From the NCBI GenBank assembly GCA_963798845.1, contig CAWCUS010000001.1:640001-704000 (forward strand): DNA of 64,000 bases, read 5' to 3'. The stretch is from an uncultured Gemmatimonadales bacterium. GTDB lineage: Bacteria > Gemmatimonadota > Gemmatimonadetes > Longimicrobiales > RSA9. Shown here piece after piece: positions 34,675 through 52,907 of the stretch; position 1 is the first letter of the stretch, and each line of letters begins with the position of its first letter. The notes under the pieces were generated by a model, which saw nothing but the letters and a program-made list of their open reading frames with translations, made no database searches and had not been told where the DNA came from. The position numbers were made by a program, and so were the translations under genes.

Positions 34675-36291
34675 TCACGGGCCACCGCCCCGCTTCGAGT
34701 CGAGGTAGGGGCCGCGGCCACGGCTCCAGATCACGAGCGCGCCGTTCAGCGCGGCGCGCTCGCCCCACCGGAACGCGCTCATCGGCGGCAGGAACTCGAT
34801 GCTCTCGATCTGCCACACCCCCATCGTGTTCAACATCTCGGCCCCGCGCACCGTGGCCACGCCGTCGATCACGATCGCGAGCATCTCGCACCAGGGGAGC
34901 GTGGTCTCCTGCTCGGGCACGACGAACCGCTGGAGGGCACGGCTGCTCTGCACGCAGACGCCATACTCCACTCCGTCCGAAGTCTCGAACCGCCCCTCCT
35001 GCACGCGCAAGCTCGGGATCTGGCTCAGCAGCTCCGTGACCGACGCCGCCCTCAGGTCGGCGAGGCGCATGTCCGCACCCGCGACCACGTGCGGCGCCTG
35101 CGTGGCGGCGCGCGCGGACCGGGTCTCGGCTGTCGTCGCCCGCACCACGAGGGCGTCGAGGGTGATGGCGCGTGGCGCCGTCCGGAGCTCCACCACCACG
35201 CTGGCCCCGGCCGGCACGCCCACCGGTTGCGACGCGCGGTCGTAGCCCAGCCGCTCCACCTGGAACACGTACGACCCTTTCTGAAGGTCGTCGAAGCGGA
35301 AATTCCCCGCGTCGTCGGTCAGCGTTTCCCGCCCCCGCACCCGCACCACGGCGCCCGGGACCGGTGCGTCCGTGTCGGCGTCCAGGAGCCGCCCCAGCAC
35401 CGTGGAGAGCGAATCGGGTCGCATCAGCGGCGAGGACTCCACCACCCGGACCGACGACGGCCTTCCCACCTCCAGCCCGAGGTCCATGCGCGCCAGCGCG
35501 CCGGGATGCACGCGCACGTCCGATTGCCGCGGCCCGATCCGGCCGAGCGCCGTCAGCCATACCGTCAGCGGGACATCCGCGGCAACATCGCACAGCACGA
35601 ACCGGCCTGCCGCGTCGGTCCTCGCCTCCGCCTGTGTGCGCCGCCCCCCCGCCACCTCCCACTCCGCCACCACCGTGGCCGCCGGAAGACGCACCGACGT
35701 GGCCGGGTCGAACGCCACGCCCGCCAGCACTCCGCGCGACCCTGCCGCCGCGCTCCCCGGATCCTGCGTCGGCGAACCGTCCGCCCGCGGCAGCGCGCAC
35801 GCGCGTGCGCGGTCGTACAGCTCCGACGGGATGGTCAGGATGAGCGGATCCGGGGGAGCATCGGCCCCGATCACGATCGGCCCCGCCACTGAGCTGCTCG
35901 CCCCTCCGAGCCTCGCCTGCACGTGGTAGCGACCCGGCTTCAGCTGCGAAAAGGCGAAGCCCCCGTCCTCGCCCAATGCCGTCGCACCCACGACCGCCAT
36001 TGCCTCGCTGAGCAGCTCGACGCTCGCCCCCGCCACCGGCTCCTGCCATCCCGCCATGACCACCCGCCCGTGCACTGCCACCTGCCCGGCGCACCGGGAA
36101 GCGGCGACCGGGAGTGGCCCGAACAGCGCCACCAGAGCCAGCACCGTGGCCGCGGCTCCGGGGCCAGTCCGCCCTGGCCTGCCGCAGGCAATGCCGTGCC
36201 GCCAGCGAACCCGCGGAGGAAGTGGCGCACTCCAGGCGTGCGTCACACGTGGGGCGTCCGGGACGTGGGGCGGAATGGCGGGATCGGACAT
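34675..36291 (-). CDS. Protein with three carboxypeptidase-regulatory-like domains and a C-terminal plug-like domain, no beta-barrel
   Basis: Three G.V.D......GA.V...TD..G.F repeats; ends IVIDG...IESIEFL.....RWG....GALVIWSR; ATG 36291 has a GGAGG SD. Confidence 0.7.
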   Translation of the reverse strand: MSDPAIPPHVPDAPRVTHAWSAPLPPRVRWRHGIACGRPGRTGPGAAATVLALVALFGPLPVAASRCAGQVAVHGRVVMAGWQEPVAGASVELLSEAMAVVGATALGEDGGFAFSQLKPGRYHVQARLGGASSSVAGPIVIGADAPPDPLILTIPSELYDRARACALPRADGSPTQDPGSAAAGSRGVLAGVAFDPATSVRLPAATVVAEWEVAGGRRTQAEARTDAAGRFVLCDVAADVPLTVWLTALGRIGPRQSDVRVHPGALARMDLGLEVGRPSSVRVVESSPLMRPDSLSTVLGRLLDADTDAPVPGAVVRVRGRETLTDDAGNFRFDDLQKGSYVFQVERLGYDRASQPVGVPAGASVVVELRTAPRAITLDALVVRATTAETRSARAATQAPHVVAGADMRLADLRAASVTELLSQIPSLRVQEGRFETSDGVEYGVCVQSSRALQRFVVPEQETTLPWCEMLAIVIDGVATVRGAEMLNTMGVWQIESIEFLPPMSAFRWGERAALNGALVIWSRGRGPYLDSKRGGGP

Positions 36292-36407
36292 GGTACCTCC
36301 GCGGGGCGTGCCGTGGCCCCGGCACGAGTCTCCTGCCAATGTACATCCGGAAGCCGCCGTGCGGCAAGGACCTCGGCGTCACGGCTTCAACGTTTTCCCC
36401 GCCGGGA

Positions 36408-39765: not shown

Positions 39766-40383
39766 ATGCCGACGCAGACAAAGGAGCGGGATTCCACGCT
39801 GATGAAGATCCCACAGGACCTCATCGAGCGGGGCCGCGGACTCGCGGGCATGGGGCACGACGTATGGCTTGCCGGCCTCGGCGCCTTCGCGGCGGTCGAG
39901 GAGGAGGGAAGCGCGCTGTACGACAGACTGGTGAAGCGGGGTCGGACCGTGGAGAAGAGCGGGCGCAAGCGCGTCGAGGAGATGCGCGAGGAGATGGAGG
40001 ACCGGCAGCAGAAGGTGACGCACGGGCTCGAGGAGAGGGTGTACGACCCGATCATGAACGCGCTCCGCTCGTTCGGTGTGCCGACCCGTCGCGAGATCCG
40101 GGAGCTGACGGGGAAGGTGGACGCGTTGACCCGTCAGGTGCAGGTGCTGGTCAGCCAGATGCCGGGCGCCGCGCCGGGAGAGTACGAAACGTACTACGTC
40201 ATGGCGCGCGAGGACACGTGGATCGTGGGGCGGGAGGGCGCCGACGAGCCGCTGTTCGTCGAGCCGACCAAGGAGCTGGCGCTGGAGCGGGCCAGGCAGG
40301 TGGTGCACAGCCAGGCGCCGAGCCGCCTGCACGTGTACCGCCGTGACGGCAGCATCCAGGACACGTTCACGTACGAAGAGTGA
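39766..40383 (+). CDS. Phasin (PhaI/PhaF-type granule-associated) domain fused to a DUF2188-like domain
   Basis: VWLAGLGAF....EEG...YD.LVKRG and GVPTRREI..L..KVDAL; C-terminal W.V.REG....TKE.A...AR...L.V..RDG.IQ...Y. Confidence 0.85.
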   Translation: MPTQTKERDSTLMKIPQDLIERGRGLAGMGHDVWLAGLGAFAAVEEEGSALYDRLVKRGRTVEKSGRKRVEEMREEMEDRQQKVTHGLEERVYDPIMNALRSFGVPTRREIRELTGKVDALTRQVQVLVSQMPGAAPGEYETYYVMAREDTWIVGREGADEPLFVEPTKELALERARQVVHSQAPSRLHVYRRDGSIQDTFTYEE

Positions 40384-40386
40384 CCC

Positions 40387-41634
40387 GTGGCCGCCAGCCG
40401 CGTCGGCTTGGCGTGCGCGGGCGGCGTCGTCGAGGGGGCGTTCTACGAGATCGGGGTCCTGTGCGCCCTCGATGAGGCCGTCGAGGGGCTCGATCTGACC
40501 GCGCTCGACGTCTACGTGGGCGTCAGCGCGGGCGCCATCCTCACGGCGTGCCTGGCCAACGGGATCCCACCCCGGGACGTGGCCCGGGCGATGCTCTCGG
40601 TGGAGGCATCCCCGGACGCCCTCGCTCCCGAGGCGGTGTTCCGCCCGGCGCTGGCCACCTACGCCGCCCGCGCGGCGGGAGTGCCCGTGCGCGTCCTGGG
40701 CGCCATCGCCCGCTACGCTGCGGACCCCCGCGACATCTCGCTCTTCGGCTCGCTCCTGGAGCTGGCCACGGCGCTGCCGGTGGGGCTGTTCGACAACCGG
40801 CCGCTGGAGCAGCACCTCGCACGCGTGTTCTCCGCCGAGGGCCGCACCAACGACTTCCGGGAGCTCCCCGCCACGCTGCGCATCGTGGCGGTCAATCTGG
40901 ACACGGCGGAGCTGGTGGCCTTCGGCGACGACGCCACCGCCCACGTCCCCATCTCCCGGGCTGTCCAGGCCAGCTCCGCGCTCCCGCTGATGTATCTCCC
41001 CGTTGAAATCGACGGGGAGTATTACATCGACGGAGTGGCGAGGCGGACGCTGAACGCGAGCCAGGCGCTCCAGGCGGGCGTGGACCTGCTTCTGTGCGTG
41101 AACCCCATCGTCCCTCTGGACCTGCGCATTCCGGGCGACGACGGCGTGCGCCATCCCAGCCTCGTCCACAGCGGGCTCCCTGCCGTGCTCTCGCAGACGT
41201 TTCGGACCATGATCCATTCGCGGATGGTGACGGGGTTCCGGAACTACGCGTTTCTGTACCCCGACGCCGACGTCGTGCTGCTGGAGCCCGAGGCCGGCGA
41301 CCGGACGATGTTCTTCACGAACATCTTCAGCTTCTCCCACCGCCACGAGGTGATGCACCACGGCTACGCGACGGCGCGCGGCTGGCTGCTGCGCAACGCC
41401 GGCCGTCTGGAGCCCGTGTTCCGCCGCCACGGCATGCGCCTGCGGGAGAGCGTGCTGACGGAGGACCGGCGCCTGGCGGTGGAGCGGCGACCGCTGCCCG
41501 GCGCGCGCGAGCTCGTGGGCCGCGCCAGCGCTGCGCTGGACGAGCTCTCGAGTGCCCTCGATCGGCTCCGCGCGAGGGGGGGCGGCACGAGCCGGAGGGG
41601 CGGTGCGGTCGGCTCCCCGCGGCGGCGCGGGTGA
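40387..41634 (+). CDS. Patatin-like phospholipase/lipase
   Basis: AGGVVEG oxyanion-like region, GVSAG nucleophile motif, ASSALP, YIDGV. Confidence 0.88.
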   Translation: MAASRVGLACAGGVVEGAFYEIGVLCALDEAVEGLDLTALDVYVGVSAGAILTACLANGIPPRDVARAMLSVEASPDALAPEAVFRPALATYAARAAGVPVRVLGAIARYAADPRDISLFGSLLELATALPVGLFDNRPLEQHLARVFSAEGRTNDFRELPATLRIVAVNLDTAELVAFGDDATAHVPISRAVQASSALPLMYLPVEIDGEYYIDGVARRTLNASQALQAGVDLLLCVNPIVPLDLRIPGDDGVRHPSLVHSGLPAVLSQTFRTMIHSRMVTGFRNYAFLYPDADVVLLEPEAGDRTMFFTNIFSFSHRHEVMHHGYATARGWLLRNAGRLEPVFRRHGMRLRESVLTEDRRLAVERRPLPGARELVGRASAALDELSSALDRLRARGGGTSRRGGAVGSPRRRG

Positions 41635-41645
41635 GGAGGCGAGGC

Positions 41646-42842
41646 ATGGCATCGCGCACGCGGATCCTCCTGTTCACCGGCAAGGGCGGTGTGGGAAAGA
41701 CCACGTGCGCGGCGGCCACGGCCGTTCGCGCCGCGGAGCTGGGGCACCGGACGCTGGTGCTTTCGTCGGACCCGGCGCACTCGCTGGCGGACGCGCTGGA
41801 CCTGCCGCTCGGCCCGGAGCCCACGGAAGTGTTCCCGGGTCTGCACGCGCAGGAGCTCGACCTCTACTACTCCATGAACAAGCACTGGGGCAACATCCGG
41901 GAGCTGCTGCTGGTGATGTTCAAGTGGCAGGGCGTCGAGCGGGTGGCGGCCGAGGAGATGGCGGCGCTGCCCGGGATGAGCGAGGGGGCCGCGCTCCTCT
42001 GGATCGACCAGCTGCACGGCTCGGGCGACTATGACCTCATCGTCGTGGACAGCGCGCCGACGGGCGAGACGCTCACCCTCCTCACCCTGCCCCAGGTCAC
42101 GGAGTGGTGGGTGAAGCGGGCGCTCCCATTCCAGCGCTTCGCCGTGAAGACGGCCGGCTTCGCCATGCGAAAGGCGGCGGGGATCCCGCTGGACCGTGCG
42201 TACGCGGAGCTGGAGTCGCTGGTGACCCACCTGGAAGCGGTACGGGACCTCCTGACGGACCCCGACACATCGTCGATCCGGCTGGTGCTCAACCCGGAAC
42301 GGATGGTGATCCAGGAAGGGCGGCGCGCCTTCGCATACCTCCAGCTGTACGGCTACAACATCGACGCCGCGCTGGTGAATCGGATCCTGCCGGAGGAGGG
42401 AGTCGGCGACGCGCTCCAGGGCTACCTGGACGCCCAGCGCGGCTACCTGACCGAGATCCAGGAGGCGTTCGCGCCACTCCCGATCCTGCACGCCCCGCAC
42501 CGCGGCCGGGAGGTGTTCGGGGTGGACATGCTCCGCCGCCTGGGGACGGAGCTCTACGGTGACCGCGATCCGACGTACGTCTTCTACCGCGGCGAGCCGT
42601 ACCGTCTGGTGAGCGAGGACGGCGGCTACCGGCTCGACCTTCGGCTCCCCGAGAGCGCGGCCGGGCAGGTCACGGCCCGGCACGCGGGCGACGAAGTGGT
42701 CCTCCAGCTCGGAAACCAGCGCCGCAACTATTCGCTCCCCCGATTCCTCGCCTACTACACCCTGACCGGCACCCGCTTCGAGCAGGGATGGTTCCGCATC
42801 CGGTTCGAGCCCGTGGCGGGCCGCGCGAAGGAGGCAGAATGA
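41646..42842 (+). CDS. GET3/ArsA family ATPase with a C-terminal HSP20-like domain
   Basis: GKGGVGKTT, SSDPAHSL, DSAPTGET, NPE.M; beta-rich C-terminus LQLGNQRRNYSLP; ATG 41646 with GAGG SD. Confidence 0.9.
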   Translation: MASRTRILLFTGKGGVGKTTCAAATAVRAAELGHRTLVLSSDPAHSLADALDLPLGPEPTEVFPGLHAQELDLYYSMNKHWGNIRELLLVMFKWQGVERVAAEEMAALPGMSEGAALLWIDQLHGSGDYDLIVVDSAPTGETLTLLTLPQVTEWWVKRALPFQRFAVKTAGFAMRKAAGIPLDRAYAELESLVTHLEAVRDLLTDPDTSSIRLVLNPERMVIQEGRRAFAYLQLYGYNIDAALVNRILPEEGVGDALQGYLDAQRGYLTEIQEAFAPLPILHAPHRGREVFGVDMLRRLGTELYGDRDPTYVFYRGEPYRLVSEDGGYRLDLRLPESAAGQVTARHAGDEVVLQLGNQRRNYSLPRFLAYYTLTGTRFEQGWFRIRFEPVAGRAKEAE

Positions 42843-44134
42843 CCGCGCCCACGACCACCGCCCAATCCCCAGGGACGACGCCGTCCGCCGCCGCAGCGCT
42901 GGACTCGCCGACGAGATCCCGTGCGGTGCGCCGTCCGGCCCAGGTCCCGCTGCCCCCGCCGTCGCGGCCCACGCGCATCCCGCGCGAGAACGACGACTAC
43001 GGCCCCAATGCCATCGCCCGGAGGCGTGCCTTCATCGAAGCGTCGAGCGGGGTGAGGCTCGAGCACGTCTCCGCCTGCTCCTTCGACCCGCGGCTGGCGG
43101 CGGGCAACTGCGAACACTTCACCGGCGTGGCCCAGGTGCCGCTCGGGTTCGCCGGACCGCTCCTGGTGCGCGGGGAGCACGCGGACGGCGAGTACCTGAT
43201 CCCGCTCGCCACGTCGGAAGGGACGCTCGTCGCCTCGTACAACCGCGGCATCCATACCCTCAACGCCGCCGGCGGCGTGCGGACCACGATCCTCGACGAC
43301 GGCATGCAGCGCGCGCCTGCGTTCGTCCTGGCCGACGCCCGGGAAGGGCGCGACTTCGCTGCCTGGGTGGCCGACAACATCCCCGGCATCCGCACGGCCG
43401 CGGAAGCCACCTCGCGGGTGGCCAGGCTGCTTCACGTGGAGCCGTTCCTGGCCAGCCGGTTCGTGTTTCTTCGATTCAGCTTCGAGACGGGCGACGCGGC
43501 GGGGCAGAACATGGTCACGCGGGCTACAGCGGCCGCGTGCCAGTGGATCGTCCAGCAGTGCGGCGGGGTGGAGCGCTTCTTCCTGGAATCGAACCTCGCC
43601 TCCGACAAGAAGACGTCGCACGTGAACATGCTGCGTGGACGGGGGAAGCGGGTGACGGCCGAGGCGGTGGTGCCGCGGACGGTGCTGGAGGAGCGGATGC
43701 GGGCGTCGCCCGACACGCTGGTCGCGCACTACCACGCCAGCTCGGTGGGCGCATTCCTGGCCGGTCCCAGCAACAACGGCCTTCACACGGCCAACGCGCT
43801 CGCGGCCATGTTCATCGCGACAGGCCAGGACGCAGCCAGCGTGGGCGAGTGCTCCGCGGGGATCATCCACGTGGAGCTCGCCGGTCCCGACCGCGAGGAC
43901 CTGTATGTGTCCATCACGCTCCCCTCCCTCATCGTGGCCACCCATGGGGGCGGGACGGGGCTGCCCACCCAGCGCGAGTGCCTGGAGGTCATGGGGTGCT
44001 ATGGCCGGGGGAAGGTTCGGATGCTGGCGGAGATCGTGGCCGCCGTGGTGCTGGCGGGCGAGCTGTCGCTGGCCTGCGCGATCGCCTCCAACGAGTGGGT
44101 GGAAGCCCACGAACGCATGGGGAGGAACCGATGA
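42839..44134 (+). CDS. Class I HMG-CoA reductase-like enzyme (divergent)
   Basis: PLATSEGTLVAS, DGMQRAP, TGDAAGQNMV, cis-loop SNLASDKK, GRGK, ATGQD, GGGTGL, LAGELSL, C-terminal His; ATGA overlap with the ATPase gene. Confidence 0.9.
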   Translation: MTAPTTTAQSPGTTPSAAAALDSPTRSRAVRRPAQVPLPPPSRPTRIPRENDDYGPNAIARRRAFIEASSGVRLEHVSACSFDPRLAAGNCEHFTGVAQVPLGFAGPLLVRGEHADGEYLIPLATSEGTLVASYNRGIHTLNAAGGVRTTILDDGMQRAPAFVLADAREGRDFAAWVADNIPGIRTAAEATSRVARLLHVEPFLASRFVFLRFSFETGDAAGQNMVTRATAAACQWIVQQCGGVERFFLESNLASDKKTSHVNMLRGRGKRVTAEAVVPRTVLEERMRASPDTLVAHYHASSVGAFLAGPSNNGLHTANALAAMFIATGQDAASVGECSAGIIHVELAGPDREDLYVSITLPSLIVATHGGGTGLPTQRECLEVMGCYGRGKVRMLAEIVAAVVLAGELSLACAIASNEWVEAHERMGRNR

Positions 44135-45501
44135 CGTGGACCTCGCCGCCGCCGGGCGGCCGCCGGTTCTCCGGCGCGGACAGCTCCTGGTGGCACATGG
44201 AGGAGCCCACCAATCAGATGGCCATCACCGTGGTCCTGACGTTCGATGGCCCGATCGACGAGGACCGTCTCCACGCCGTGCTCCGCGATCGGCTCCTGCG
44301 CCACGACCGCTTCCGGCAAATGGTGGTGGAGTCTCCGCTCGGGTTCGGCCGCCCTCAATGGGTGGAGGACCCGGGGTTCTCCCTGGAGCGGCACCTGAGC
44401 CGGATCCGCCTGCACGACGGCGGCGGGAAGGCGGAGCTCCAGCGGGTCGCAGGGCTGGAGATGAGCCGCCCTCTCCACCCGGACCGCCCCCTGTGGCGCA
44501 TGGTCTACGTCGACGGCTTCGAAGGCGGCTCCGCCCTCGTGATCCGCATCCACCACTGCATCGCCGATGGCCTCGCCCTCGTACGGGTCCTCATGACCCT
44601 CGGCGATCCTACGGACGGTGCGTGCGGCGAGCGGGCGAGCCCGGCCGTCCTCGACCCCGCCACGTACGCCTCGCCTTCGGTCACGATGACGGCGGGAGAG
44701 GCGGCGGAGCGCGACTTCGTCCGAGCCCTGGCGCTGGGCACCCGCGCTGCGGGGTCGCTCGGCCGCCTCGTGGGGCTGCGCCCGGACCCGCGGACCGCGC
44801 TGCGCGGGCCGCTGTGCCGGGAGAAGCGCGCGGCGTGGTCGCGTCCAATGTCGCTGCGGCGGCTCCGGGCCGCCTCTCGCGCCGCCGGCGCCACGCTCAA
44901 CGACGTGGTGGTCGCCGCCGTGGCGGGCGGACTGGGGCGCTTCCTGGCGGAGAAGGGAGAGCAGCTCACGCGTGAAGTCCGCGCGGTGGTCCCCGTGAAC
45001 CTGCGCCGCAACGGCGACGAAGAAGCGCTGGGCAACCGCTTCGGGCTGATCTTCGCTCCGTTGCCGCTGGGCATCCCGAATCCTCTCGAGCGTCTCGGCG
45101 CGGTGCACGCTACCCTGAGCCGGCTCAAGCGCTCGCCCCAGCCGATGGTGATCTACGGCCTGCTGGAGCTCCTCGGCCGTACGCCGCGCGCCGCCCTCGA
45201 CCTGGCCGTCTGGCTCCTCGGCAGCAAGGGCTCGCTGGTTCTCACGAACGTGCCGGGTCCCCGTCGCAGGATTCGCATCTGCGACCGTGAGCTCCTGTCT
45301 GTCGTCGGCTGGGTTCCCCAGTCCGGCCGATTGGGGCTCGGTGTCAGCATCCTCAGCTACGCGGACGAGATCCGGCTGGGCGTCGCCACGGATGCCGCGA
45401 TCCTCCCGTGCCCGGACCACCTGGTGGGCGCCATCCAGGATGCTGCCGACCAGATCCTCGACACCGTTCGCCCGCCCCGGGTGGCGGAGGTGGTGGCATG
45501 A
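44131..45501 (+). CDS. Wax ester synthase/diacylglycerol acyltransferase (WS/DGAT)
   Basis: HHCIADG catalytic motif, ATLNDV, PVNLR, LGNRFG, TNVPGP, ILSY; ATGA overlap. Confidence 0.93.
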   Translation: MTWTSPPPGGRRFSGADSSWWHMEEPTNQMAITVVLTFDGPIDEDRLHAVLRDRLLRHDRFRQMVVESPLGFGRPQWVEDPGFSLERHLSRIRLHDGGGKAELQRVAGLEMSRPLHPDRPLWRMVYVDGFEGGSALVIRIHHCIADGLALVRVLMTLGDPTDGACGERASPAVLDPATYASPSVTMTAGEAAERDFVRALALGTRAAGSLGRLVGLRPDPRTALRGPLCREKRAAWSRPMSLRRLRAASRAAGATLNDVVVAAVAGGLGRFLAEKGEQLTREVRAVVPVNLRRNGDEEALGNRFGLIFAPLPLGIPNPLERLGAVHATLSRLKRSPQPMVIYGLLELLGRTPRAALDLAVWLLGSKGSLVLTNVPGPRRRIRICDRELLSVVGWVPQSGRLGLGVSILSYADEIRLGVATDAAILPCPDHLVGAIQDAADQILDTVRPPRVAEVVA

Positions 45502-47402
45502 GCACCGCAGCTCGGGATCCGGACGCCCGTCCGCTCGCCCTGGTCCGCGGCGAAACGGGCAGCGACGCGCCCCCGGCACCCCCCGCGCCTCCGGCGGAGG
45601 AAGCGGCGCTGGAGGGGGCGCCAGCGGAGTCGGCGCTGGCCGGGCTCGTCCCGCGCACCGCGCCGCACCTCCACGCCACCTATCGGAGCGTCATCGGTCG
45701 CTTCTTCGGCGTGCACCGGCACGTCCTGGGTCTGCTGGTGGGGGCGAGGGTCGCGAGGGCGGACGGGCTGCCGCCGGACCAGCGCCGCCGCTTCCGGTCG
45801 CTTCCACTGCGCGCGTCCGCCGCGGTGCTGCGCCCGCTCCTGCTCCGAGAGCTGCGCCACGCTCCCTTCCCGGAGCAGCTGCGCCGTCGCCTGGAGCTGC
45901 TCGGTCCCACGTACGTGAAGCTCGGCCAGATCATGGCCATCCGTGAGGACCTGCTCCCCGCCCCCGTCTGCCGGGCGCTCCAGGTGCTCTTCGACCACGT
46001 GCCGCCGGTGCCGTTCGAGACCGTGCGCCTGACCCTCGAGCGGGAGCTGGGCCGCCCGATACACCAGGCGTTCCGCTGGGTAGACGAGGAACCGCTCGGC
46101 TCGGCGTCCATCGCGCAGGTGCACCAGGCCGAGACCGTCACCGGCGACGCCGTGGTCGTGAAGGTCATGAAGCCCGGAATCCGCCGCTCGATCGAGACCG
46201 ACCTGCGCCTGCTCCGCTGGCTCGGCGCGCTTCTCCAGCACGTGCTGCCGCGCTACCAGCCGCGCCGGATCATCGACGAGTTCGGCACCTACACGCTTCG
46301 AGAGCTCGACTTCACCGCCGAGGCGGACAACGCCGAGACGTTCGCCGCCAACTTCCACGACACCCCGGAAGTGTGCTTCCCGCGCATCTACCGCGAGCTC
46401 ACCACGCCCTCGCTCCTCACCATGGAGCTGCTGCGGGGGTTCAAGCCATCCGATCCCCGGGCACGCGCCCTCTCCGCCGACGACCGCGAGCGCCTCACCG
46501 ACCTCGGCGCCGGCGCCATCATCCGCATGCTGTACCGCGACGGCTTCTTCCACGCCGATCTCCATCCGGCCAACCTCCTCATCCTCGGCCGTGAGACGGT
46601 TCGCGCCGCGGGGGCTGGAGTCGGCGGGGGGGGCGCGTGGGGCGCCGCGGGCAGCGCGGCGGCAGCCTCGAAGGCCGCCCATGCAGCCGACCACAGCGAT
46701 CGCGACACGCTCCGTGTGGGCTTCGTGGACCTCGGGATGGTGGGACGCTTCGAGGACCGGATGCGCCGTCGCATGCTCTACTACTACCACGCGCTGGTCA
46801 CCCGCGACGTGGAAGGGGCGGCCAAGTTCCTCGGCCAGATGGCCGAGCTCGGCCGTGGCGCCGACCCCGTCGCCTTCCGGCGCGCCGTCGTGGACCTCTC
46901 GCGTCGCTTCGTCACCCGCGCCGAGCGCGGCGAGTTCAGCATCGCCCAGCTCATCCTCGAGTCCATCGGCCTCGGCGCCCGCTACCGCGTCTACTTCCCC
47001 GTGGAGATGACGCTCATGGTCAAGGCGCTGGTCACGTTCGAGGGCGTCGGTCGCATGCTCGACCCCCACCTCGACGTCACGGCGATCTCACGCCGTCACG
47101 TCAGCCGCATCCTCCAGCGACAGTTCACGCTCGAGCGGGTCAGCCGCGAGGTGCTGCGCGAAGCCCCCGAGCTGATCGAGCTCGCCGTCGGTCTCCCCCA
47201 GCTGCTGGTCAGCGGCAGCCGCTTCCTCGAGGAGAGCTTCGACCGACGCCCTCCCCGCGACCCCGCCACGGGCCTCCGCTCCGCGGTGCTCGCCGGCGCA
47301 TGCCTCATCGGCGGCGTTCTCACCCTCACCGCGGCCGGACCGCCCGCGCTCTGGATCCCCCTCTTCGGCCTCGCCGCCGTCATGGCGGTGTGGCGGGGCT
47401 AG
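45498..47402 (+). CDS. ABC1/UbiB (AarF) family atypical kinase
   Basis: LGPTYVKLGQ, GSASIAQVH, VVKV, ELDF..EA, FFHADLHPANL, DLGMVG, two C-terminal TM helices; ATGA overlap. Confidence 0.93.
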   Translation: MSTAARDPDARPLALVRGETGSDAPPAPPAPPAEEAALEGAPAESALAGLVPRTAPHLHATYRSVIGRFFGVHRHVLGLLVGARVARADGLPPDQRRRFRSLPLRASAAVLRPLLLRELRHAPFPEQLRRRLELLGPTYVKLGQIMAIREDLLPAPVCRALQVLFDHVPPVPFETVRLTLERELGRPIHQAFRWVDEEPLGSASIAQVHQAETVTGDAVVVKVMKPGIRRSIETDLRLLRWLGALLQHVLPRYQPRRIIDEFGTYTLRELDFTAEADNAETFAANFHDTPEVCFPRIYRELTTPSLLTMELLRGFKPSDPRARALSADDRERLTDLGAGAIIRMLYRDGFFHADLHPANLLILGRETVRAAGAGVGGGGAWGAAGSAAAASKAAHAADHSDRDTLRVGFVDLGMVGRFEDRMRRRMLYYYHALVTRDVEGAAKFLGQMAELGRGADPVAFRRAVVDLSRRFVTRAERGEFSIAQLILESIGLGARYRVYFPVEMTLMVKALVTFEGVGRMLDPHLDVTAISRRHVSRILQRQFTLERVSREVLREAPELIELAVGLPQLLVSGSRFLEESFDRRPPRDPATGLRSAVLAGACLIGGVLTLTAAGPPALWIPLFGLAAVMAVWRG

Positions 47403-47487: not shown

Positions 47488-48039
47488 ATGATGAGTGAAA
47501 TCGAGAACGACGCCTCGACCCCGCCCACGACGCCCGCCGGGCCGCCGGCGCCGCCTCCGCCCCTGGACCTTCGCGTGGCGGAGGTGACGGAAGCGGACGA
47601 GCATCCGAACGCGGACCGGCTGCTGATCCTCCGGGTCGACCTGGGAGACGAGCGCCGCCAGCTGGTAGCGGGGCTGGCGGGGATCTACGACCCGGCGGAG
47701 CTGGTGGGGAAGCGGATCGTCGTCGTGGCGAACCTGAAGCCGGCACGTCTGCGCGGGGAGGCGAGCCAGGGAATGCTGCTCGCCGCCCACGGCGACGGGA
47801 AGGTCGGCGTGCTCCTCGCTCCGGACGCGGTGCCGGGCACGCCGCTCGAGACCGGGGCCCGCGCGGACACCGGAACCTCGCAAGCAGCCCCGCCCGCCGA
47901 AACGCCGCCGCAGATCACGATCGACGACTTCGGCCGCCACACGATCATCGCCTCGGCCGAAGGTGTGAGCCTGGACGGAACGCGGGTCGAGCGGCCCCGG
48001 CTGGTGGTCGACCGAGAAGCCTGGGGTCCGGTGAAGTAG
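47488..48039 (+). CDS. tRNA-binding domain protein (CsaA/MetRS C-terminal-like)
   Basis: LDLRVAEV..A..HPNADRL...VDLG.E.RQLVAG...VANLKPARLRGE.SQGMLL. Confidence 0.85.
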   Translation: MMSEIENDASTPPTTPAGPPAPPPPLDLRVAEVTEADEHPNADRLLILRVDLGDERRQLVAGLAGIYDPAELVGKRIVVVANLKPARLRGEASQGMLLAAHGDGKVGVLLAPDAVPGTPLETGARADTGTSQAAPPAETPPQITIDDFGRHTIIASAEGVSLDGTRVERPRLVVDREAWGPVK

Positions 48040-48897: not shown

Positions 48898-49276
48898 CTG
48901 GGTTCCGGCCGGAACATAGGCTGCTCGCGGCTCCGCTGCACCCGGGCGAGCGGACGCCGCTGACCGGAGTGTACCAGGAGCGCCGACACCAAGCCGCTCC
49001 ATTCGCCGGCCCGGCCGATTCGCTTGCCTTCGCCGGCTCCCCGGGGCATTTTGTGATGGACGTGGCGGCTCTCGCCCTGCCGAACCCCCTCTGCGATTCG
49101 CCGTTCGCGTAACGGGTGCCCCCACCCGGACACAGTGACCTCCCAACACAGCACGGACCCGACGTCGGGACGGGCCACCGCGCGCGCCGCCTGACCATGG
49201 CGTCGGGCGTCGCCGTTGGTGCGATGGCGGGTCGGTCGTGAGGAACGGGCCCAGGTCCAGGCTGAATCCTGAGGGG

Positions 49277-49924
49277 ATGAGCATGAAGGATGGCACCGGC
49301 CGACGGAGGTACCCCGGGGTCCCGGGACGGCGCCCCCGCGCGCTCCCCATCGCCCACGCGCTGGCGTCACAGGCGGTCGGCACCGAGCGGCTGAGGGTCC
49401 GCGTCCCGTGGAGCGTTCCCGAGCTCGTCCGGTCGACGCTGGCCCTCGCCTGGCACGGTGGCGCCCCGCGCCCCGCCGCCATCGTCAGTCTCCTCTTGGT
49501 GGTATGCGCTGCGGCGGTCGCAGCGATGGTCCAGTGGGCGCGCGGAGGCTGGGACGCGGTGGATGCGCTGGCACTCGCCGTCATCGTGGTGCCGCCGCTC
49601 CTGGTGGTCTTCCTCGGCATGCCCGCGTCCGCGTTCTGGCACACGTGGCCCGTCCTGCGCCACGCCTCGGTCGCCGGCCACTGGGAAGTTCGCCTCGGCG
49701 ACGGCGGATTCGCCCTCCTCGCCGCCGCCAGCGCCGCCGGGACACCCTGGCAGCGAGTGGAGCGCGTGGTGGAGACGGATGGGTTCTTCCTCTTCTTCGT
49801 GGATCGCGCCGCGCTGGCGCTCCCCCGTCCCGCGCTCACGCCGGGGGATACGCGCGTCCTCCGGGCGTTGCTGTGGGCGAAGCTCGGCGAACGGTTCATC
49901 CTTCGACACGGCCAGGCGGCCTGA
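49277..49924 (+). CDS. YcxB-like membrane protein
   Basis: Two TM segments then PW..V..VVET..FF.F......LP..A; start uncertain. Confidence 0.5.
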   Translation: MSMKDGTGRRRYPGVPGRRPRALPIAHALASQAVGTERLRVRVPWSVPELVRSTLALAWHGGAPRPAAIVSLLLVVCAAAVAAMVQWARGGWDAVDALALAVIVVPPLLVVFLGMPASAFWHTWPVLRHASVAGHWEVRLGDGGFALLAAASAAGTPWQRVERVVETDGFFLFFVDRAALALPRPALTPGDTRVLRALLWAKLGERFILRHGQAA

Positions 49925-50073
49925 GGATCCTGGACGACACGCCGGCGGTGGATCCGGCCCGGCACGTTCCTTCCTCCCGGGGCCCGACCGTTCGGCAGGG
50001 CACCCCGGGCAGCGCCGGCAGGCAGCACGAGCGCGCCTTAGATTCGGCAGCGGACCCGATTCACGGAGCGGTG

Positions 50074-52263
50074 ATGTTCATGCACGCAACGTCTCCCCTT
50101 TTTCCCTGGCTGCTCGCGGCCACGGCGTTCGCCGCGGCGTCTGGAGGGTGCTCGGACGCCTCCGTGACGGCCCCGCCCGACAATGGGGGCGAGCCGCTTC
50201 CCTCGCAGGATGGGCATCGCTTCACCTACTCGCCGCCACCGCAGGCGCCTCCGATCGCCGACATCAGCGTCCGGGGGAGCTTCAACGGGTGGGAAGAGAA
50301 GCCGATGGCGAAGGGCACGAGTGGGGTCTGGCAGGTCGTCGTCGACCTCCCGGACGGGACGCATCAGTACAAGTTCTACGTGAACGGTGCGTGGGTGAAC
50401 GACATGTGCTACGACCCCACGTGGGGCGATCCGGACAACGGGTATGTCGTGGACCCGGCAGCGACCGGATGCGTGTCGGACGGAAACAGCGGCGCGAACG
50501 CGGTGCTGGCGCTGGGCGCGCTGCAGCTGGACTTCCGCCACCAGCCCGGCGGGGCCGCGTACGTGTCGGAGGCCGGGGGTCGCCTGTCGGTGCGGTTCAG
50601 GGCGCGCGCCGGGGTGGTGACGACGGCCGCCGTGGCCGCCGGGGACTCGACCTTCCCGATGCACCTGCAGCTGGTGGACGGGATCACGGAGGTGTGGCGA
50701 GCGTCGTTGCCGGACGCGACGACCGGCTACGCGATTGACGTCGCCACGGTGGACAGCACGGCGCACTTCGGGCCGTACCAGGTGCCGGCGAGCCTGTTCC
50801 GCTCGATTCGGTGGGTGGAGGACGCCGTCGGCTACCAGATCTTTCCGGAGCGCTTCTGGAACGGAGACCGTGGCAACGACCACTGGACAATGGACACGGA
50901 CGAGATCCACTTCCGGGACCCGTCGCTCCCGCCGTGGGACACGGTGTTCACCGACGACTGGAGCGGTCCGGCCACCGGATGGCTCCCCTCGCACCAGTAC
51001 TTCGGCGGGGACCTCCAGGGCATCATCGACCGTCTGGGACACCTGGATTCCCTCGGGGTGAGCGCGGTCTACCTCAACCCGGTCTTCCTGGCCGGCTCCG
51101 CACACGGGTACGACACGTACGACTACCTGAAGGTGGCGCCGAACCTCGGGGACAGCACGCTGCTCCGATCGTTCCTCGACGCCGCGCACGCGCGGGGAAT
51201 CCGCGTGATCTGGGATTTCGTTCCGAACCACGTGGGTATCGGCCACTGGGCGTTCCAGGATGCCCTGGCGAAGGGAGAGGCGAGCGAGTACTGGGACTGG
51301 TTCACCTTCAAGGTGCCCGCGGACTCCGTCCAGGCCGGGGACGACGATGACTACGAGAGCTGGGGAGGTAGCGGTTCGCTTCCGGAGCTCCGGACGGACA
51401 ACCCGGAGGTGATGGACCACCTCCTGGACGTCACCCGCCACTGGACGACCTTCGGCTTTGACGGCATCCGCGTGGACGTCCCGTTCGACATCGGCAACCG
51501 CAGCACGTTCTTCCCGGCGTTCCGCGCCGCGGCGAAGGCGATCGACCCCGAGGCGTATCTCGTGGGCGAGATCTGGAACCAGGTGCCAAGCTGGCTGCGG
51601 GGGGGCGAGTTCGACGCACTCATGAACTACGCCCTCGGCCAGCGCATGGTGGAAGCGTTCGCCGACGGCGACATCAGCGGTGTAGCGGCGGCCCGACGGA
51701 TGGCGTCCATGTACACCGAGTACCCGGAGGCGGCCGTGGCCATGATGTTCAACGTCATCGCGTCCCACGATACCGACCGGCTGCTCACCATGCTCGGCGG
51801 TGGCCACTACGGGGCGACCCCCGGCCCCGAACCGCTCGCCCGACAGCGGCTCGCCTCCGCGCTGCTCTATGCGCTCCCCGGCATGCCCGTCACGTTTCAG
51901 GGCGACGAGTGCGCCCAGCTCGGCGCCAAGTCGAGGAGCGACATGGAGCGTTACCCGGTGCAATGGAGCCAGTGCGACCGGGAGATGGTGGGGCACTACG
52001 TCCGGCTGGCCGGGCTGAAGCACGGGCTGGCGGCCCTCGGGTCTCCCGTGGTTCGGGCGGGTGAGGCTTCGCCGACCCTGCTCTCGTTCCACCGGGGCGA
52101 GCCGGGCCCGGGTGAGGTGCTGGCCGTGTTCAACAACGGCTCCGGTGAGGCAACGCTCGCGCTCCCGCCCGGCATCTGGAGCGACGCGGAGACCGGCGAG
52201 GCGGTGAATGGGAGCGTGGCCATGGAGGGACTCGGCTGGCGCTACCTGGTCCGGGGCGACTGA
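50074..52263 (+). CDS. GH13 alpha-amylase/neopullulanase-like lipoprotein with an N-terminal glycogen-binding (CBM48/AMPK-like) module
   Basis: Signal ending SGGC-S; VRGSFNGW...YKFYVNG; YQIFPERF, GGDLQGI, HGYD, DFVPNH, DGIRVD, GEIW, SHD. Confidence 0.9.
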   Translation: MFMHATSPLFPWLLAATAFAAASGGCSDASVTAPPDNGGEPLPSQDGHRFTYSPPPQAPPIADISVRGSFNGWEEKPMAKGTSGVWQVVVDLPDGTHQYKFYVNGAWVNDMCYDPTWGDPDNGYVVDPAATGCVSDGNSGANAVLALGALQLDFRHQPGGAAYVSEAGGRLSVRFRARAGVVTTAAVAAGDSTFPMHLQLVDGITEVWRASLPDATTGYAIDVATVDSTAHFGPYQVPASLFRSIRWVEDAVGYQIFPERFWNGDRGNDHWTMDTDEIHFRDPSLPPWDTVFTDDWSGPATGWLPSHQYFGGDLQGIIDRLGHLDSLGVSAVYLNPVFLAGSAHGYDTYDYLKVAPNLGDSTLLRSFLDAAHARGIRVIWDFVPNHVGIGHWAFQDALAKGEASEYWDWFTFKVPADSVQAGDDDDYESWGGSGSLPELRTDNPEVMDHLLDVTRHWTTFGFDGIRVDVPFDIGNRSTFFPAFRAAAKAIDPEAYLVGEIWNQVPSWLRGGEFDALMNYALGQRMVEAFADGDISGVAAARRMASMYTEYPEAAVAMMFNVIASHDTDRLLTMLGGGHYGATPGPEPLARQRLASALLYALPGMPVTFQGDECAQLGAKSRSDMERYPVQWSQCDREMVGHYVRLAGLKHGLAALGSPVVRAGEASPTLLSFHRGEPGPGEVLAVFNNGSGEATLALPPGIWSDAETGEAVNGSVAMEGLGWRYLVRGD

Positions 52264-52343
52264 GCCGTGGCGCGCCAGCCCATGCGCCGATCGGGCGGAG
52301 TCCGGATGCGGGCGGCGTCGGCGGCGGCCGCCGGGGCGGTCGC

Positions 52344-52775
52344 GTGGTGATCCGGTTCGTCGTCTACGGTCTGCTCGGCTGGGCGGTGGAGATCGTGTTC
52401 ACCGCGGCCAAGCGGCTGCGGGACCCCGGCCGATGGCGGCTCGAGGGGAGAACCTACGTCTGGATGTTCTTCATCTATGGCCTCATCGCCCCGCTGTACG
52501 AGCCGCTCCACGACGCCATCCGTGTCTGGCCGCTGCCGGCCCGCGCGCTGCTGTACGGCGCCGGGTTCCTGCTGGTGGAGTACCTCTCCGGTTGGGTGCT
52601 GCGGCGGCTCACGGGCGCGTGCCCATGGGACTACACGAAGCGGGCGCGCTGGCACCTGCACGGGCTCATCCGCTGGGACTACGCCCCGCTGTGGATGCTG
52701 CTCGGTCTGGCACTCGAGCCGGTTCACGATTTCCTGGTGAGGCTCACGCCCGCCATCCGCGACGCCCTCGGGTAG
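52344..52775 (+). CDS. Putative ABC-transporter type IV (CmpB-like) membrane protein
   Basis: F.VYG.LGW..E, WMF.IYG, EY.SG, CPWDY, GLIR.DY.P.W. Confidence 0.7.
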   Translation: MVIRFVVYGLLGWAVEIVFTAAKRLRDPGRWRLEGRTYVWMFFIYGLIAPLYEPLHDAIRVWPLPARALLYGAGFLLVEYLSGWVLRRLTGACPWDYTKRARWHLHGLIRWDYAPLWMLLGLALEPVHDFLVRLTPAIRDALG

Positions 52776-52907
52776 GCCGTCCCGCCGTCCCCGCGCGCAT
52801 CGCGCACCCGCCTTGCGCGACGGGGGACGCTCGGCTTGCTCGCCGCACCGCCGAACCGCTAGCGTGCTGGGCTCACCCACGACCACAGGGGGACGGCGGG
52901 AGATGTA

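Follow-up and report, generated by a model that had tools for sequence, protein, structure and literature searches.

Why would a gene that resembles HMG-CoA reductase (HMG-CoA being 3-hydroxy-3-methylglutaryl-coenzyme A) overlap the gene for a wax ester synthase/acyltransferase (WS/DGAT)? The question is raised by the window analyzed here, a stretch of 64,000 nucleotides from an uncultured Gemmatimonadales bacterium (GTDB order Longimicrobiales; GenBank assembly GCA_963798845.1, contig CAWCUS010000001.1, positions 640,001 to 704,000), in which the + strand gene at 42839..44134 encodes a 431-residue protein of the class-I HMG-CoA reductase (HMGR) family. We consider it very probable that this gene, called fcrA below, encodes an FcrA-type fatty acyl-CoA reductase, a soluble enzyme with the class-I HMGR fold that supplies alcohol to the coupled WS/DGAT. 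What the following sections present on residue signatures, placement in the tree, coupling of the genes and gene content of the genome was all observed directly. The enzyme type itself is already known, the idea of an HMGR-like acyl-CoA reductase having been in print since February 2025 (Grossi et al., 2025, ISME J 19:wraf035, PMC11948995; cited throughout for its main text). What is new here is a family member that lacks the Lad domain and is encoded in an unusually complete lipid-body operon.

Signature residues of the window protein

FcrA is the name given to a clade of class-I HMGR homologs that are fatty acyl-CoA reductases (Grossi et al., 2025). As defined in the main text of that paper, FcrA proteins keep the catalytic Glu559, Lys691, Asp767 and His866, have Glu in place of Ser684, a generally small residue in place of the HMG-binding Lys, and Trp in place of Leu862; an N-terminal Lad (long-chain alkyl carrier) domain or a fusion to acyl carrier protein is optional, Lad being ascribed to "certain FcrA". 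The HMG-binding lysine is printed there as Lys795; under a numbering in which Glu559, Lys691 and His866 fall where they should, it is Lys735. The same text reports on a purified enzyme from 'Ca. Promineifilum breve', Pb-FcrA, which used NADPH, and not NADH, to act on acyl-CoAs of 14 or more carbons, reduced neither HMG-CoA nor a C16:1 aldehyde, was uninhibited by 10 uM simvastatin, and yielded wax esters in E. coli when combined with an Acinetobacter WS/DGAT.

A phmmer search of the whole PDB with the window protein returned eight matches, all of them class-I entries titled HMG-CoA reductase, the best being 6hr7 from Methanothermococcus thermolithotrophicus (E 3.1e-80), with the human entries 1dq8 at E 8.3e-64 and 2q1l at about 1e-64. 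Residues were numbered through a HMMER alignment to the human chains 1dq8 and 2q1l (chain index + 421), a scheme which puts the catalytic Glu559, Lys691 and His866 at their literature positions. The original prediction, made from the letters of the window, had held that the class-I catalytic machinery is kept, and the alignment bears this out: in the 431-residue numbering Glu559 corresponds to E127, Lys691 to K257, Asp767 to D331 and His866 to H424, with Arg590 (R158), Asp690 (D256), Lys692 (K258) and Asn755 (N319) retained as well. The substitutions that had been proposed from a manual alignment were also recovered, since Ser684 is replaced by E250 (codon GAA, 43586-43588), Lys735 by A300 (codon 43736-43738), and the DAMGMN motif by DAAGQN (Met655 to A221, Met657 to Q223). 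Thus, in this sequence-based comparison with class-I HMGRs, the equivalents of Ser684 and Lys735 are replaced rather than conserved. A further change, Leu862 to W420 (codon 44096-44098), had been absent from the earlier reading.

These changes were followed by aligning 122 rows with MAFFT, namely the query, its self-match, 119 homologs (61-79% identity; with the self-match, the best 120 homologs of the window protein) and the paralog encoded in the same genome. The Ala and Gln of DAAGQN occurred in 121 of the 122 rows, and the Ser684 column held Glu in 120 and Asp in one. At the Lys735 position 121 rows carried Val (81), Ala (20), Ile (16) or Thr (4), and the Tyr687 column held Phe in 82 rows and Leu in 29. 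In every signature column the sole differing row was the canonical paralog, and the Trp at the Leu862 position was invariant in a 23-row alignment. Since the changes are kept across the 120 best homologs, they constitute a family trait and not drift. The window protein lacks the canonical Ser684 and Lys735 ligands of the HMG carboxylate together with DAMGMN; its own-genome paralog keeps all three, as read in its motifs DAMGMN, SGNYGVDKK and YRKNLLGS.

The same data bear on the idea that the gene is a decaying copy, or a catalytically dead one with a structural role. Nothing specific favors this beyond a low-complexity stretch of about 60 residues at the N-terminus which is also predicted with low confidence (see below), and the frame is open with a guanine-cytosine (GC) content of 0.83 at third positions, every catalytic residue is intact, homologs from different phyla keep the substitutions, and coupling to the neighboring genes is tight; we therefore regard decay as scarcely credible.

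Phylogenetic placement and structure model

From 214 catalytic-domain rows of the class-I HMGR family, stripped of the five signature columns, an unrooted FastTree phylogeny was built. It comprised 55 homologs drawn at random from two 120-row lists (35 from the search with the window protein and 20 from a Promineifilaceae-seeded search), 145 of 150 representatives from a search with the canonical paralog (5 fell below the coverage filter), 12 open reading frames (ORFs) from retrieved loci, and the two proteins of the window genome; the two characterised proteins, Pb-FcrA and the N. pharaonis FcrA, were not included, and some branches are long. The window protein fell in a clade of 61 rows that all carry the signature (Shimodaira-Hasegawa-like support 98), nested within a 63-row split with support of 100, and a Ca. 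Promineifilaceae homolog (L076) was inside the same clade. The own-genome paralog grouped with canonical HMGRs, beside the canonical HMGR of a genome of the same genus. A tree built with the signature columns kept again placed the window protein in the signature clade. The phylogeny that had been proposed as a check thus sets the protein apart from canonical HMGRs. In the 214-row alignment the Lys735 column was shifted by one in many canonical rows, showing Arg for the own-genome paralog where the 122-row alignment and direct reading show Lys, and canonical counts from that column were not used.

An AlphaFold2 monomer model computed from the 23-row alignment had a mean predicted local distance difference test score (pLDDT) of 70.3 and a predicted template modelling score of 0.62, with pLDDT below 50 in the N-terminal 61 residues and in the cis-loop (residues 267-284 in a 448-residue numbering). 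The top Foldseek matches of the model in the PDB were all class-I HMGRs, with 6hr7_A at E 1.8e-31, a template modelling (TM) score of about 0.48-0.57 and a root-mean-square deviation of 13-15 Å. The model and the Foldseek search confirm the predicted HMGR fold family, not its details.

Mevalonate and wax-ester genes in the genome

If the window gene were a true HMGR, binding the HMG carboxylate in some other way, it might make mevalonate, for example for isoprenoid alcohols to be esterified by WS/DGAT, and mevalonate supply was in fact the alternative named in the original prediction. A mevalonate pathway does exist in this genome, and the window protein, with a PF00368 score of 414 bits, retains the full catalytic set along with Arg590 and Asn755. 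However, the 4.26-Mb assembly holds two PF00368 genes, the window gene on contig C1 and a second, canonical one on contig C4; the two products share 45% identity. The canonical copy lies in a cluster (C4:460853-472133) with squalene-hopene cyclase (SHC), HpnH, HpnA, a type-2 isopentenyl diphosphate isomerase (IDI2), a mevalonate kinase-like gene, a diphosphomevalonate decarboxylase and a squalene-synthase-like gene. The kinase-like match scored 100.7 bits, below its cut-off, and the decarboxylase 186 bits, above its cut-off; matches to both were confined to C4, and HMG-CoA synthase-like matches were weak and lay on C2 (94.8 bits) and C5. These positions agree with the earlier statement that no other mevalonate gene lies near the window gene. 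DXS was found above cut-off on C5, so that together with the C4 cluster both isoprenoid routes may be present.

Because a canonical HMGR stands in this mevalonate/hopanoid cluster, mevalonate supply is accounted for elsewhere than by fcrA, which covers the alternative named in the original prediction. Furthermore, an FcrA-type gene is the sole PF00368 match in two other genomes that have DXS and no decarboxylase match (see below), HMG-CoA is not reduced by the assayed Pb-FcrA, and the carboxylate of that substrate would be confronted by a Glu in the place of Ser684 (Grossi et al., 2025, main text). Taken together, these observations make a true HMGR highly improbable. The homologs of the window protein, among the best 120, are annotated "hydroxymethylglutaryl-CoA reductase (NADPH)", a label that wrongly suggests a second mevalonate route. 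The TIGR00533 equivalog model was tried as a discriminator between FcrA and HMGR and dropped, since both paralogs scored below its cut-off of 441.8 bits (window protein 343.8, canonical paralog 419.1).

On the wax-ester side, the genome has a single WS/DGAT match (TIGR02946, 361-363 bits), which adjoins fcrA and keeps the HHxxxDG motif intact as HHCIADG. An AcrB-type reductase was not found in the genome, the best PRK07201 score, 131.5 bits, being below the cut-off of 549. PF07993 gave 12 matches in the genome, of which the best was HpnA and all but two were in open frames of about 330-420 residues. The window gene is therefore the sole candidate found by these searches for supplying alcohol to the only wax synthase of the genome. 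FcrA shares with the AcrB/FarA-type reductases the net reaction and the role of alcohol supplier for WS/DGAT, but their fold is unrelated to that of the HMGR-derived FcrA, and these enzymes of short-chain dehydrogenase/reductase fold also reduce free aldehyde, unlike Pb-FcrA (Grossi et al., 2025, main text).

Operon organization

The GC content of the window is approximately 71%, and genes were called with a third-position GC screen combined with Pfam and NCBIfam scans. Six consecutive genes were resolved on the + strand:

39766..40383, + strand, fusion of a phasin-like protein with DUF2188, encoded first in the operon (PF05597, E 1.9e-23; PF09954, E 3.4e-11)
40387..41634, + strand, patatin-like lipase (PF01734, E 2.8e-26)
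41646..42842, + strand, Get3/ArsA-type ATPase ending in an HSP20-like domain (PF02374, E 8.4e-79; PF17886, E 1.3e-14; TIGR00345, 230 bits)
42839..44134, + strand, fcrA, very probably an HMGR-derived fatty acyl-CoA reductase, 431 residues, lacking a Lad domain (PF00368, E 6.9e-124, 414 bits; signature and catalytic residues; tree)
44131..45501, + strand, WS/DGAT wax ester synthase/acyltransferase, 456 residues, presumed user of the fatty alcohol (TIGR02946, 361 bits, cut-off 310; HHCIADG)
45498..47402, + strand, ABC1/UbiB-type atypical kinase (PF03109, E 4.4e-61)

The last three junctions (ATPase to fcrA, fcrA to WS/DGAT, and WS/DGAT to the ABC1 kinase at 45498-45501) are ATGA overlaps of stop and start codons, and ahead of each lies a purine-rich stretch resembling a Shine-Dalgarno sequence. 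The overlaps and these stretches together indicate that the genes are translationally coupled and that 42839 is the likely fcrA start. That start had been proposed originally and is probably correct, given the overlap with the stop of the Get3/ArsA-like gene and the GGAGG ahead of the ATG. The coupling of the reductase to WS/DGAT was likewise upheld, as the WS/DGAT ATG at 44131 overlaps the fcrA stop at 44132-44134.

The features which the window protein shares with FcrA as described in the main text of Grossi et al. (2025) comprise the PF00368 core, the catalytic Glu/Lys/Asp/His, the replacement of Ser684 by Glu, of Lys735 by a small residue and of Leu862 by Trp, a place in the signature clade, linkage to WS/DGAT, and, in the presence of a mevalonate pathway, a canonical HMGR encoded separately. 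It differs in having no N-terminal Lad domain and in being encoded in a six-gene operon with a phasin, a patatin, a Get3/ArsA-type ATPase and an ABC1 kinase. The protein also has in common with canonical class-I HMGRs (human 1dq8/1dqa; 6hr7) the fold, the sequence family and the catalytic residues and, as judged by homology, would share the four-electron reduction of a thioester to an alcohol, whereas Ser684, Lys735, Leu862 and DAMGMN are all replaced and its gene lies away from the mevalonate genes.

Proposed reaction

The substrate, cofactor and products of the window protein are predicted by homology to the assayed Pb-FcrA. By this analogy, the Glu/Lys/Asp/His machinery and two NADPH would reduce a long-chain fatty acyl-CoA (about C14 or longer), by way of a thiohemiacetal and an aldehyde, to a fatty alcohol, which the coupled WS/DGAT would esterify with a second acyl-CoA to give wax esters. 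Glu at the Ser684 position and Ala at the Lys735 position would take away the contacts with the HMG carboxylate and make the pocket longer, and Trp at the Leu862 position, on the closing C-terminal helix, would disfavor the branched HMG. The original prediction had suggested that an uncharged acyl-CoA or hydroxyacyl-CoA is reduced to an alcohol or diol for WS/DGAT. Its first half, the supply of an alcohol, is supported by the FcrA signatures and the clade membership; as to the hydroxyacyl and diol part, a plain long-chain fatty acyl-CoA is the likelier substrate.

Distribution of FcrA-type genes

Relatives were sought with a signature search, in which the peptides TGDAAGQN and [YF]LESN[FLV]A[TS]D were back-translated and matched against contigs of one genome per species. 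The patterns matched at least 598 stretches; tblastn bore out 588 of these, and 80 loci were retained. These 80 loci span Acidobacteriota, Gemmatimonadota, Chloroflexota, Bacteroidota (Hymenobacter and relatives of Salinibacter), Calditrichota, KSB1 and others.

Five of the genomes with signature loci were searched for PF00368, diphosphomevalonate decarboxylase and DXS. In a Hymenobacter genome (G001) and a Thermoanaerobaculia genome (G004), the FcrA-type gene was the sole PF00368 match, no decarboxylase match was found, and DXS was above cut-off. FcrA-type genes thus exist in the absence of a mevalonate pathway, in agreement with the statement in the main text of Grossi et al. (2025) that bacteria with an FcrA-type homolog alone have no such pathway. 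The Caldilineaceae genome (G002) has two PF00368 genes and the decarboxylase, with no DXS above cut-off, and the Pyrinomonadaceae genome (G003) has two PF00368 copies, both with the AQ/E/W signature, with DXS above cut-off and no decarboxylase match. In the Bryobacterales genome (G005, about 8.3 Mb), two PF00368-family genes were found and both the decarboxylase and DXS were below threshold, which could reflect incompleteness or an alternative route.

Closer to the window genome, an FcrA-type ortholog was present in just one (G026, 70% identity) of 40 further genomes from its order, and a genome of the same genus (G006) has the canonical HMGR only.

Two side groups of PF00368 genes were observed. 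Genomes G005 and G003 each contain, in addition to an FcrA gene with a Lad domain, a short second copy that lacks it (L104 and L099, respectively). L104 keeps Ser684 (LSGGLDTDKK) despite the AQ motif and Trp862, and L099 has LEGSFATDKK; in the tree both fall into one group, beside the core FcrA clade. A third PF00368 group occurs in relatives from the same order (L109 in G045, L115 in G017 and L118 in G026, probably with L110-L114) and is 41-46% identical to the window protein. Its members have Ala or Gly at Met655, Gln at Met657, Glu at Ser684, Met at Lys735 and Phe at Leu862, and the group is the sister of the FcrA signature clade (Shimodaira-Hasegawa-like support 99).

Gene neighborhoods and possible uses of the alcohol

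Neighbors were surveyed by phmmer with the operon proteins of the window on the flanks of the 80 loci from other genomes, using bit thresholds set by eye (phasin 45, patatin 200, ArsA 200, WS/DGAT 120, ABC1 400); full 10-kb flanks were available in only 36 of the 80, and the counts that follow refer to the flanks fetched. This survey replaced a de novo clustering of neighboring ORFs, which had been swamped by the shadow ORFs of GC-rich DNA. An ABC1 kinase homolog was found in the flanks of 22 loci; in 18 of them, from several phyla (L034, L035, L043, L050, L059-L065, L072, L073 and others), no more than 700 bp separated it from the fcrA homolog, so that adjacency at this distance was commoner for the kinase than for WS/DGAT (4 of 80). 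A phasin was present in 14 loci, a patatin in 12 and a Get3/ArsA-type ATPase in one. None of the five neighbors was found in 47 of the 80 loci, and at least one of them in 17 of the 36 with full flanks.

The single ATPase case is a Salinivenus metagenome-assembled genome (L095), in which the Get3/ArsA-type gene also lies directly upstream of fcrA (about 1-1270; 532 bits); the other 79 loci stayed below the 200-bit threshold for this protein, and the ATPase is present in G026.

These neighborhoods raise the possibility that the protein is of the FcrA type but that its alcohol serves mainly ether lipids or other alcohol-derived lipids, or that its substrate is some other uncharged acyl-CoA, for instance one with a hydroxyacyl or branched chain, leading to a diol. 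The main text of Grossi et al. (2025) describes the co-occurrence of fcrA with WS/DGAT as looser than that of acrB and proposes roles in ether-lipid synthesis; in 61 of our 80 loci no WS/DGAT was found within the fetched flanks; and in three annotated loci, from Caldilineaceae, Pyrinomonadaceae and Hymenobacter, the fcrA homolog stands amid unrelated housekeeping genes. In addition, the variation within the family in the Lys735 and Tyr687 columns could tune the substrate. In the window, however, fcrA is translationally coupled to the only WS/DGAT of the genome, in an operon that also holds a phasin and a patatin, genes of lipid-body type. On balance, we consider a different lipid product or a different acyl-CoA unlikely at this locus, and retain a fatty acyl-CoA reductase that supplies alcohol to WS/DGAT.

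Several observations weigh against that assignment. The clade placement comes from FastTree only, as an unrooted tree with some long branches, and the monomer model is mediocre, with a TM score of only about 0.5 to solved HMGRs. WS/DGAT was found in the fetched flanks of only 19 of the 80 loci; fcrA often occurs without WS/DGAT according to the main text of Grossi et al. (2025) as well. The nearest proxy for Pb-FcrA in our data, the Ca. Promineifilaceae homolog L076, is 58% identical to the window protein over residues 63-448. Finally, the window protein is missing the Lad domain, which we take to be Pfam PF25653 and which most family members carry: PF25653 was matched in 89 of the 120 best homologs, and no match was found in the window protein at E <=0.001, its N-terminus consisting of about 60 low-complexity residues. 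The ten closest relatives of the window protein are likewise without PF25653.

The operon as a possible accessory unit

The genome of the same genus that has the canonical HMGR only (G006) follows the window collinearly as far as 39404 and resumes at 47508, with 139 bp between (C3 709776-709915) and flanks 71-78% identical to the window. The 139-bp gap between conserved flanks indicates that the whole six-gene operon is missing there. In the same-family genome G026, matches to all six operon genes were found at 70-75% nucleotide identity. The operon looks like an accessory cassette, and a gain in the window genome and a loss in G006 are both compatible with the data.

We tentatively propose, as a possibility that we hold to be rather less than even, that the six genes form a self-contained accessory cassette for a wax-ester body which is gained and lost as a unit, with the ABC1 kinase and the Get3-like ATPase acting on either the reductase or the lipid body. 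The kinase or the ATPase might target or load the reductase, taking the place of the missing Lad domain. If this proposal is true, the ABC1 and Get3-like part of FcrA biology is absent from the main text of Grossi et al. (2025), in which the terms phasin, patatin, ABC1, UbiB, ArsA and Gemmatimonad do not occur. Our literature search turned up no FcrA publication beyond that paper, and the combination of wax ester synthase, ABC1, patatin, phasin and lipid droplet was not found in any paper. The ABC1 kinase neighbor and the presence or absence of the operon within one genus offer leads on the organization and regulation of bacterial neutral-lipid bodies, and an FcrA without a Lad domain in a tight lipid-body operon could be a compact expression cassette for wax-ester production.

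Two further differences were observed at the syntenic place in G006, which is also without the gene with CarboxypepD_reg repeats (window 34675-36339) and the alpha-amylase/CBM48 region (about 48924-52834). These additional differences indicate that the neighborhood carries several insertions or deletions.

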